From UHGV virus genome UHGV-1343268: DNA of 17,098 nt; one strand, written 5' to 3'. Under the pieces are notes generated by a model that did not search any database, was not told where the DNA came from, and worked only from the letters and a program-made list of their open reading frames with translations. Made by a program: the position numbers and the translations under genes. This document shows positions 1-10,975 of the stretch, one piece after another; the first letter of the stretch is position 1; every line of letters starts with the position of its first letter. This stretch comes from a virus.

Positions 1-27
1 AAAATCAAAGCAATAAGCAGTGTCGTG

Positions 28-50
28 AAACCACCTTCGGGTGGTTTTTT
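28..50 (+). terminator. Rho-independent terminator-like hairpin, possibly the 3' end of a gene or sRNA upstream of the window
   Basis: Seen in sequence: 8-bp stem AAACCACC (28-35) / GGTGGTTT (40-47), TTCG loop, followed by a T-run to position 50. The transcript it would terminate is not identified. Confidence 0.45.
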
Positions 51-522
51 CGTATTTGTATTTTGTGCAATGGCGGTAGAGTGGCGATGGTGTGGCGATA
101 TGCAGAAACAATGGTAGTGCACGTGCTGTTTAAACTCTAAGGATGAAGCAGAATTCTTCTGCAGCTCCTCCGTATTTCGCATAGTGAACCAGGACCTCTG
201 TTAAACAAAAATTTTTCTGGGATTTTTTCACTCGACTTCATTTTTCCTCCTGCAATCCACCAACAGGTACCTGCGCTAATCTATCTTTTTAATCTGACAA
301 CATCTTGGGAAAAGGCAAATTCGTCAGATTTACTGTTTTTCTGCTGCCTCGAATGCCGATGTCTGAAGCGCTGATAAGAGTTCTATCTCTTTGATATAGA
401 TCTTTTTTTTGATGAATTGCACGACATATTATCGTTATGACACCTTCTTGTTAAAGGTATTGTACTCCTCATCTCGATTTTATGATGTGGGCTATGATTG
501 GTTAGTAATAGAGTGTATCGGT

Positions 523-804
523 ATGCGATGTGGTTTATTAATGGCAATCTGCCTTTGTTTAGTATCTTTTAGTGGATATGCAGCAACAGGAAAGTCTGAT
601 GCTCAGATCAAAAAAGAAATAATTAAAGAATCCATTGAATCTTATCCAGGCAATTGTGCGTGTCCTTATAATCATGCAAGGAATGGTAGTAGATGTGGTG
701 GACGCAGTGCATATAGCCGTAATGGAGGGTATGACGTGGTATGTTATGAGGGTGATGTTACCGATGAAATGATCCGGCAATGGAAGCAGGAGAATGCTGA
801 GTAA
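523..804 (+). CDS. Small Cys-rich exported protein of unknown function (about 93 aa)
   Basis: The supplied ORF runs 409..804; an internal ATG at 523 gives MRCGLLMAICLCLVSFSGYAA-TGKSD, a classic signal peptide (basic n-region, hydrophobic core, AxA-like cleavage site). The mature part is Cys-rich (CACPYNHARNGSRCGG). AT-rich codon usage. Start choice is inferred, not verified. Confidence 0.5.
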   Translation: MRCGLLMAICLCLVSFSGYAATGKSDAQIKKEIIKESIESYPGNCACPYNHARNGSRCGGRSAYSRNGGYDVVCYEGDVTDEMIRQWKQENAE

Positions 805-1873: not shown

Positions 1874-3013
1874 TCAGCTGCAAATTTCGTTGTTGCTGCA
1901 TGTTATCTCTTCAAGTGCAGCGGCGTTATAATCAACGGAATGATCAACCTGTGATGTAGGTATGCCAAAAAATTCAACCCCTGACATAATCATGTTGCCG
2001 ATATTCTCTCGCTGTTTATCACTGAGCCTGTCCCACCACTCAGGGGATGAATATGTATTTTCGGCCTTTGTGAAGAAAAAATACAGAAGGGTATTGAACA
2101 TCCTGTTAGCTGGGATCTTAATTAGTGTCCGTATAAAACGTCTGATAATTGTTGAAGTTCTCAGCCAACTGAACACTACATATCCCTTACCTCCGCAGGA
2201 AAAAGCATTGAAACATACTTGTTCCGCCGACACTGTAAGATCGCTCAAATCCTGAATTTTGGTCCCATCGAAATCCCTCTCCGGTGAAAGAATTGACGAA
2301 ACTACAATTGGTAAAGGCTCTGCAAAAGTGAAGATAACACTTTCAATTTCTGAAAATTGCCTGCTAAGTAGGATGCGGTCGAGGCTAGTTTTAAGATTAT
2401 TTAATTCAATTATTGCTGCATTTAAGCCACTTTGGTGCTGGTCGATTAATTTCTGAATATAATACTGTTCAACTTGTAGCTTTCCTTTATCGGCATTTTT
2501 AGCAAAATCAGAAGATAGCACTCCCCCTTCTTTGGCATAAATTTCTTTAGACAATGAACGAAACATTAAGGCAAAGCACTGCTCGTCCGTGCCTGTAAAT
2601 TTTTCGTTCTCTAGGCATGAAAATAAGATTCTGTCATGAACTGCACAAAATCCTGTAAAAGTGGATGCCTGATTGATACCGATCTTCTCGGGAAGCCATT
2701 TTCCGTTGTTTCTCATCAGGCTTGCTAAGTTCATTATCACCCCCATGACGTGATTGCTGGAGTCGGCGATCGCCTTAAGGCTACTGCTCTTAGATATCGT
2801 ATGCGCCTGAACGATGCGTTTATCACAATCTTCGTGCATGGATGCTGGCGCATAACATGCCTTTCTCTGCGAGAGAGACTTTGAAAATTTCAGTGCCTCG
2901 GCTTTGGATACCGGAGTTTCACGATCTCGACCAAGATGGCACTTTTTATACTTAAGTCCTGAATTACACCAGCACTTATCATTTCTTCCTAATTTCACTT
3001 TATTGTTTCCCAC
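1874..3013 (-). CDS. Cargo protein with N-terminal SEC-C-type zinc-binding motif, function unknown (about 379 aa); candidate accessory or defence gene
   Basis: ORF on the same strand as D and ogr and inserted between them. N-terminus KCWCNSGLKYKKCH matches the SEC-C metal-binding motif (C-x-C-x8-C-H). Markedly AT-rich compared with the flanking phage genes. The annotated start is a GTG with no clear SD; an in-frame GTG five codons downstream (MKLGRND...) is an alternative. The remainder of the protein has no domain I can name. Confidence 0.7.
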   Translation of the reverse strand: MGNNKVKLGRNDKCWCNSGLKYKKCHLGRDRETPVSKAEALKFSKSLSQRKACYAPASMHEDCDKRIVQAHTISKSSSLKAIADSSNHVMGVIMNLASLMRNNGKWLPEKIGINQASTFTGFCAVHDRILFSCLENEKFTGTDEQCFALMFRSLSKEIYAKEGGVLSSDFAKNADKGKLQVEQYYIQKLIDQHQSGLNAAIIELNNLKTSLDRILLSRQFSEIESVIFTFAEPLPIVVSSILSPERDFDGTKIQDLSDLTVSAEQVCFNAFSCGGKGYVVFSWLRTSTIIRRFIRTLIKIPANRMFNTLLYFFFTKAENTYSSPEWWDRLSDKQRENIGNMIMSGVEFFGIPTSQVDHSVDYNAAALEEITCSNNEICS

Positions 3014-10402: not shown

Positions 10403-10975
10403 GTGCTGTCTTACCTAATGGCAATTCACTTTGTTTTATTTGGGAACTCTACTAATTTAAAAAACTTCTGGAAACATGAAGTAATTCGGCGGAAACGTAT
10501 GGATATCTGGAGGCTTTTAAGAGAGAAAAAGCAGCGTAACAGGAATTTCCTTTTCTGGTGGCGGTTGGCTAACGAAATGTATATTAATGGTAATAAATTA
10601 CATAAGAAAGCAGCCAAGAAGTTAAACAGTAAAATAATTAACAAATTTGGTTGCGAAATTGGATTGGGCGCAAATATTGGAAAAGGGTTAACAATTCCCC
10701 ATCATGCTGGAATTGTTGTTCATTTTGCTGTTGATGCTGGTGAAAATCTGGTGTTACGACAGAATACGACCATTGGACAGATAGATGGTGACATACCTGG
10801 TTCAAGAGTAAAAATTGGTAGCAACGTTGATATCGGAGCTAATTGTTGCATCATTGGATTATCCCGTAAAATTGGGGATAATGTAAAAATAGGTGCAATG
10901 TCTTTTATAAATAAAGATATACCATCGAACTGCACATATATAACTAAAAAGAGCGGTGCTGTATTGTATAAATAG
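10403..10975 (+). CDS. Hexapeptide-repeat acyltransferase, serine-O-acetyltransferase (CysE/WcaB)-like; cargo gene
   Basis: The C-terminal half carries repeated [LIV]-G-x-x-x-x hexapeptide units (IGLGANIGKGLTI, KIGSNVDIGANCCIIG, KIGDNVKIGAMSFI) resembling the left-handed beta-helix of CysE-type acetyltransferases. Strongly AT-rich. SD AAGGAG (10391-10396) precedes an in-frame GTG at 10403; the ATG at 10418 is an alternative start. The supplied ORF begins at GTG 10370. Confidence 0.78.
   Translation: MLSYLMAIHFVLFGNSTNLKNFWKHEVIRRKRMDIWRLLREKKQRNRNFLFWWRLANEMYINGNKLHKKAAKKLNSKIINKFGCEIGLGANIGKGLTIPHHAGIVVHFAVDAGENLVLRQNTTIGQIDGDIPGSRVKIGSNVDIGANCCIIGLSRKIGDNVKIGAMSFINKDIPSNCTYITKKSGAVLYK

Follow-up and report, generated by a model that had tools for sequence, protein, structure and literature searches.

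An accessory gene beside the attachment site of a P2-like prophage encodes a small four-cysteine protein predicted to be exported

Introduction

A small AT-rich gene lies at the left end of the virus genome UHGV-1343268, beyond ogr, and raises two questions: does it belong to the phage or to the chromosome in which the phage had integrated, and what could its product do? The window referred to below is the whole stretch of 17,098 nucleotides that was analysed; positions are those of the window unless another locus is named, and + and − denote its strands. The gene and its start codon are treated first, followed by the prophage boundary, the neighbouring genes, the protein and its family, and the function of the product.

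The small gene and its start codon

The longest open reading frame at the site, taken from the ORF listing, runs from 409 to 804 (+) and opens with TTG. The most likely true coding sequence is the 93-residue gene at 523–804 (+), starting with the ATG at 523. This start was accepted because the RefSeq coding sequence spans exactly 523–804 (WP_001303543.1, a 93-residue 'hypothetical protein') and because diverged homologues start at the equivalent methionine, each with a signal-like N-terminus of its own (alignment of 30 sequences). Two longer readings were dropped, one of 131 residues from the TTG at 409 and one of 130 residues from the ATG at 412, as given by metagenome gene callers; in both cases the N-terminal extension is not kept in diverged homologues. 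A sequence-only reading of the window had placed a small gene at 409–804 and had given its product roughly 93 residues. The product size is borne out by the RefSeq entry and the homologues, and the reading frame and its end at 804 are real, but the start at 409 was set too far upstream.

A word-indexed search returned 235 homologues of the 93-residue protein at E≤0.01, every one of them unnamed, and dN/dS among the E. coli alleles of the gene was 0.09–0.25, as estimated from few substitutions. The frame at 523–804 is therefore not a chance one, and a conserved, real coding gene is present. The surrounding DNA is AT-rich, as had been noted from the letters alone: the GC content over 401–800 is 0.355–0.42, compared with about 0.50–0.58 in the phage structural genes.

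The 3'ETS-leuZ terminator stands upstream of the small gene. A consensus scan for sigma-70 promoters on the + strand upstream of the gene gave no match, which counts against the best explanation presented below. The hexamer TATGAT at 481–486, found by eye, is at most a candidate promoter element, and an alignment of the E. coli and Salmonella upstream regions was uninformative.

The prophage boundary

Base 1 of the window lies 16 nt past the tRNA-Leu gene leuZ. Bases 1–50 (+) are 100% identical to the K-12 sequence downstream of leuZ and form the last 50 bases of a 121-bp att direct repeat, that is, the end of 3'ETS-leuZ, which is repeated at the integrase end; the terminator hairpin of the 3'ETS-leuZ spacer is at 27–48, and phage-specific DNA, which has no similarity to K-12, starts at base 51. 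In K-12 MG1655, yecA follows directly after leuZ and 3'ETS-leuZ, an empty site without the small gene. Bases 1–1700 of the window are 100% identical to E. coli SCU-105, in which a complete P2-like prophage of ∼37 kb occupies the leuZ–yecA interval with its integrase end adjoining yecA. The two copies of the 121-bp repeat, 100% identical to each other, are at 269–389 and 37579–37699 of L009; the small gene, at 862–1143 of this locus, is situated 473 bp inside the left copy. The second copy, just beyond the integrase, consists of the 3' half of leuZ and the whole 3'ETS. The IMG/VR viral contig L108 (34,888 bp, about the length of one phage genome) shows the order integrase end, single att copy, hok remnant, small gene, hok, ogr and gpD. 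Such an order is that of attP, in an excised circle or, as could in principle be the case, in a tandem lysogen.

Of 5426 complete E. coli genomes, 616 (about 11%) contain the DNA of the gene; O157, O26, O103 and O111 strains are among them, as is the enterotoxigenic H10407. The leuZ contexts of SCU-105, O157 EDL933, ETEC H10407, M719, a 74%-identical allele and Salmonella were inspected, and in every one of them the gene lies beside hok/ogr or the remains of a P2-like prophage; in O157 EDL933, an IS30 element takes the place of hok and ogr. Diverged alleles are found at the same P2-like end, with 74% identity for the former allele and 57–68% in Salmonella. An 80%-identical E. coli allele (P0012; L190, 3166–6294) is located 330 bp from copA and not at the leuZ site, in a context that extends to the end of the contig, which stops before the neighbouring genes.

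The sequence-only reading had left the choice between prophage-end cargo and flanking host DNA, and had proposed a comparison with prophage-free strains. With K-12 as such a strain, the gene is absent from the leuZ–yecA interval and the junction falls at base 50/51. Ordinary host DNA would agree with the position of the gene next to a host tRNA operon, in the same orientation. This explanation was rejected because of the empty K-12 site, the position of the gene within the att repeats, the gene order in L108 and the P2-like surroundings at leuZ; presence in only 616 of 5426 genomes also speaks against it, and we give it practically no chance. The cargo half of the choice stands. Overall, the analysis places the prophage edge at base 50/51, counts the gene as part of the phage and revises its start codon.

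The phages P88 and Chuche are 96–97% identical to the window from about 871 onward (hok, ogr, gpD), with matches starting at 871–873. To the left of ∼871 the slot holds gp53 in P88 and com/mom-like genes in Chuche, and the att of both phages differs from that of the leuZ prophage. The small gene is dispensable, since these related phages do without it. A tblastn search of 50,697 deposited phage genomes gave no homologue of the small protein, so that the evidence for carriage by phages rests on prophages and viral contigs. The phage in question is a P2-like prophage related to P88 (genus Xuanwuvirus) and integrated into the 3' half of leuZ, and the gene at 523–804 is an accessory (moron-type) gene in a slot of variable content, with the attachment site on one side and hok/ogr on the other.

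The att core of 121 bp is unusually long: it takes in the 3' half of leuZ and all of the 3'ETS-leuZ small RNA, terminator included. The functional 3' end of leuZ and the 3'ETS of a lysogen are supplied by the phage, and a promoterless second copy adjoins yecA.

Neighbouring genes at the prophage end

A remnant of a second hok/sok locus, from which part has been deleted, was recognised at 163–330 (−) from short collinear matches. It matches the end of the hok coding sequence and the hok mRNA leader/sok region at 1037–1356, with the middle missing, and includes a degenerate open reading frame (137–241) that ends in GSLCEIR, as hok does. The remnant as a whole (137–330) stands between the att site and the small gene. 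In the Salmonella prophage there are two intact hok genes, both between the small gene and ogr, and the order thus differs.

A hairpin resembling a bidirectional terminator, called on both strands, is located at 880–907 between the small gene and the hok mRNA; the similarity to P88 sets in just upstream of it. The hok toxin gene is at 993–1133 (−; Pfam HOK_GEF, E 3.7e-07), which confirms the earlier description of the small gene as convergent with a hok-like locus. The sok antisense RNA region is at 1123–1279 (−; Rfam sok, 46.7 bits, E 8.4e-09, under the gathering score). Together, 993–1279 is the phage's own type I toxin-antitoxin module, adjoining the cargo slot. The late-gene activator ogr, which marks the conserved end of the P2-like genome, follows at 1324–1584 (−; Pfam Ogr_Delta, E 5.1e-14; RefSeq annotation).

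The second hok/sok copy at 163–330 and the onset of similarity to P88 and Chuche only at about 871 would also be accounted for if the segment 51–870, with the hok remnant and the gene, were the relic of an earlier leuZ prophage lying beside the present one. We consider this very improbable: there is no att copy between the gene and hok, the only two being at the outer ends; L108 links the whole segment to the integrase end via one att copy; and both Salmonella and the 74%-identical allele hold the gene at the same phage end. The segment is taken as part of the present prophage.

Two other sites in the window drew attention. A protein of 379 residues is encoded at 1874–3013 (−), between ogr and gpD, in AT-rich DNA (GC 0.35–0.44). 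Its RefSeq name is 'YecA family', an N-terminal SEC-C motif is the only recognisable part, and the PADLOC match was confined to this motif. In the related prophage L185 the slot is occupied by Thoeris genes (SIR2_2/STALD and ThsB_TIR); in strain M719 there is a TIR gene near it, and P88 and L108 have nothing in it. The slot resembles a hotspot for defence genes, here with an uncharacterised candidate at 1874–3013. Between the tail genes and the tail-fibre assembly gene, at about 10403–10975 (+), an annotated serine O-acetyltransferase is probably another cargo gene, possibly for acetylation of surface sugars.

Predicted signal peptide and export

By inspection of the sequence, residues 1–20 (523–582, +) are predicted to form a signal peptide, with a predicted signal peptidase I cut after G-Y-A. 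The N-terminus reads MRCGLLMAICLCLVSFSGYA up to the predicted cleavage point and ATGKSD after it. The features recognised by eye are a basic residue (R2), a hydrophobic core of 16 residues (3–18) and G-Y-A at −3 to −1 (G18, A20). Three extra cysteines inside the predicted signal peptide are not conserved. A strongly hydrophobic N-terminal 10-mer is present in 171 of 191 single-domain family members. A lipobox ([LVI][ASTVI][GAS]C) is absent from the E. coli protein, for which a lipoprotein reading was discarded, and a lipobox-like string occurs in only 11 of the 191 relatives. These features point to export by Sec and a cut after residue 20, which would yield a soluble periplasmic product of 73 residues.

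Cysteines and predicted fold of the mature domain

The predicted mature protein of 73 residues and its stop codon are encoded at 583–804 (+), a reading supported by the alignments, AlphaFold2, PHROG 27544 and the RefSeq coding sequence. Its cysteines C45, C47, C58 and C74 are invariant in the 30 and also in 106 aligned homologues, in accordance with the Cys-rich mature part that had been noted before. They follow the pattern C-x-C-x10-C-x15-C, with a spacing kept by 280 of 283 domain copies, and are among the 16 invariant columns across the 30 sequences. The family consensus after the signal peptide is SDAQIKKxIIKESIxSYPGNCPCPYNxARNGSRCGGRSAYSRxGGYxPxCYxxDVTxxMIxxWR. The first cysteine motif is CPC in 186 of 265 members (70%) and CAC in 29%, the E. 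coli protein having CAC.

AlphaFold2 gave a pLDDT of 78.8 when the signal peptide was included and 84.7 when it was left off, with a confident core (up to 93); in the model, two helices flank a loop-rich core that contains the cysteines. Foldseek comparison of two AlphaFold2 models with the PDB and BFVD gave no match at E≤0.001, and a sequence profile search of the PDB returned a single chance match (E 7.6). Judged from the alignments and the model, the domain would begin with an amphipathic helix and end with a second one, and between them the four cysteines would hold a loop core rich in Gly, Ser, Arg and Asn. Four cysteines in the oxidising periplasm are most simply read as two disulfides that DsbA would make.

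Size, range and genomic settings of the family

The sequence-only reading had recommended a homology search, which was carried out and led to an unnamed family; no identity emerged from Pfam, NCBIfam, PADLOC or the PDB. When 1.84 billion cluster representatives were searched with a profile, at least 2286 clusters (50% identity) matched at E≤0.001, 1444 of them at E≤1e-10, and the source names of the cluster members are all 'hypothetical protein'. The sole profile match of the protein is PHROG 27544 (E 7.2e-58; residues 13–93 against positions 1–81 of the 81 in the profile). The Pfam scan of the protein yielded only Sclerostin, at 18 bits against a cut-off of 27, and NCBIfam none; among 30 family members scanned against Pfam at E≤10 no family recurred. 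Zero families were matched at E≤1 in PADLOC-DB. A literature search on WP_001303543.1, the CPCPY/CACPY motif and leuZ P2-like prophages returned nothing relevant.

At least 338 GTDB species have a family member. Most of them are gamma-, beta- or alphaproteobacteria, such as Acinetobacter, Pantoea, Pseudomonas, Kosakonia, Klebsiella and Sphingomonas; a few carriers are among cyanobacterial and other metagenome-assembled genomes. Members are also found on 116 plasmids (including 35 from Xanthomonas and 30 from Pantoea), on islands that carry an integrase, on a contig with a relaxase and on an unrelated phage-like contig. Clustering of the neighbours at 80 genome loci revealed synteny within genera only and no gene family common across genera, which suggests that the protein acts alone. 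In 13 of 18 Acinetobacter species, cysD-cysN precedes the gene by 146 bp, with all of them on one strand, and in both Acinetobacter and Kosakonia the family occupies conserved chromosomal positions. The family is thus not specific to phages but mostly cellular, and in some genera it is a stable chromosomal gene.

The cysD-cysN pair of the Acinetobacter loci (2157–5267 of L046 and 12 others) encodes sulfate adenylyltransferase; the adjacency is confined to that genus and hints at a link to sulfur assimilation. Homologues of 48% identity are located ∼1 kb from the end of many IMG/VR proviruses of 40–52 kb (L149–L184; for example, 3974–4267 of L150). These Klebsiella-type homologues were set aside as evidence for phage carriage, a periplasmic transthyretin-like gene alongside suggesting host flank, which may have been swept in by the provirus caller. 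On the Xanthomonas citri plasmid plB (L023, 4920–7190), a family member lies 1.3 kb from a 'YecA family' (SEC-C) gene, beside avrBs3. A family member and a SEC-C gene are paired in the window as well, which may be coincidence.

Domain fusions

Among 40 longer family members that were scanned, the domain is fused to SH3_3 (14 members), PG_binding_1 or PG_binding_2 (4), SNase (3) and TonB_C (1). In ten long members scanned separately, the partners were SNase (2, both also within the set of 40), SH3_3 (1) and a GmrSD_C/HNH nuclease domain (1). Some members contain the domain twice. The identified partners are nearly all extracytoplasmic domains and therefore provide independent support for export; they suggest a location and do not define a ligand.

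Function of the small protein

The explanation that best covers the data, and which we regard as probable, is that of a P2-like prophage cargo gene for a Sec-exported four-cysteine domain that may serve as a binding module of the envelope. Its components differ in strength: the statements on gene, cargo and export are far firmer than the reading as a binding module. By analogy with the fusions, we tentatively propose that the small protein may be a disulfide-stabilised, ligand-binding module in the cell envelope. The domain, which in other bacteria is joined to secreted nucleases or to modules that bind peptidoglycan (SH3_3, PG_binding_1, TonB_C), would be a portable unit that is set beside wall-binding domains or nucleases. 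Ligand binding is a better guess than enzymatic activity because the domain is too small and loop-like. A lysogen with the phage copy would gain an accessory trait located in the envelope, one that phage growth does not need. In its wider form, the proposal is that the phage carries an undescribed extracytoplasmic domain, a portable binding module repeatedly acquired by phages and plasmids to alter the envelopes of their hosts; we put this at somewhat less than an even chance.

From position and signal peptide, the product had at first been likened to periplasmic inhibitors and immunity or exclusion factors, a suggestion that gained neither a match in PADLOC nor a conserved partner gene. Such a factor would protect the lysogen in the periplasm, either as a barrier to incoming phage DNA or as an inhibitor of a lytic enzyme (such as a muramidase of phage or host). 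The variable, AT-rich cargo slot of a temperate phage is a fitting place for it, the nearby ogr–gpD slot holds Thoeris genes in a related prophage, and the family recurs on phages, plasmids and islands; an envelope role against incoming DNA or wall hydrolases would also agree with the domain's fusions to periplasmic nucleases and to domains that bind peptidoglycan. However, besides the negative PADLOC result, no similarity to known lysozyme inhibitors or exclusion proteins was detected in Pfam, the PDB or with Foldseek, and the fixed chromosomal positions in Acinetobacter (13 of 18 species) and Kosakonia are untypical of defence genes. We judge a role in exclusion or inhibition to be unlikely.

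The invariant cysteines with their fixed spacing could alternatively belong to a periplasmic redox or metal protein, in which the C-x-C and the two distal cysteines would form a thiol/disulfide centre or a Cu/Zn site. CPC and CXC are known redox motifs, as in the active site of Mia40, and CPC is the consensus in 186 of 265 members. In Acinetobacter the gene comes after cysD-cysN, which serve sulfur assimilation and lie on the same strand, and one E. coli allele is beside copA, maybe by coincidence. Against this reading, metal sites made of four cysteines are seldom found in the oxidising periplasm, no conserved linkage to genes for redox functions or metal resistance is seen across genera, and the family has no conserved set of His, Met or acidic ligands; the fusions to nucleases and peptidoglycan-binding domains point away from redox chemistry. 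A redox or metal function is doubtful on these grounds, and a binding module of the envelope is retained as the preferred reading.

Comparison with known systems

As a genetic element, the gene is of a familiar kind, namely that of the AT-rich accessory genes which temperate phages carry at the end next to att. The genes old, tin and fun(Z) of P2 are accessory (moron or hotspot) genes of the P2-family phages. Like such genes, the small gene is AT-rich, has a terminator of its own, varies between otherwise collinear phages and adjoins the attachment site; it differs from them in that its product is small and exported, without a known defence domain, and in that the family has stable chromosomal members. 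PHROG 27544, a full-length match without name or function, represents the same protein family as it is met in prophages, whereas the family as a whole is far larger than its phage members and mostly cellular. With Mia40-type CPC/CXC proteins, the C-P-C consensus (C-A-C in the E. coli protein) is shared at the level of the motif only; similarity of fold or sequence between the small protein and CPC/CXC redox proteins was not detected.

The domain is a very common, highly conserved small one, predicted to be periplasmic, for which we found no family entry, structure or literature. Its fusions to cell-wall-binding domains and secreted nucleases offer a concrete start for a ligand search, and the E. 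coli prophage copy is an easy genetic system in which the domain can be tested.

The nearest analogue by usage is Excalibur (PF05901), a small extracellular domain that contains cysteines and binds calcium. The two domains are used alike, as short extracytoplasmic modules on secreted nucleases of the SNase type and the GmrSD_C/HNH type. The small protein differs from Excalibur in its four cysteines in C-x-C-x10-C-x15-C and in the absence of an acidic calcium loop, and PF05901 matched neither the protein nor, even at E≤10, any of 30 family members. By eye, an Excalibur-looking stretch is present in family member P0177, and a gene that combines SNase and Excalibur is located 2 kb from the Pseudomonas homologue.
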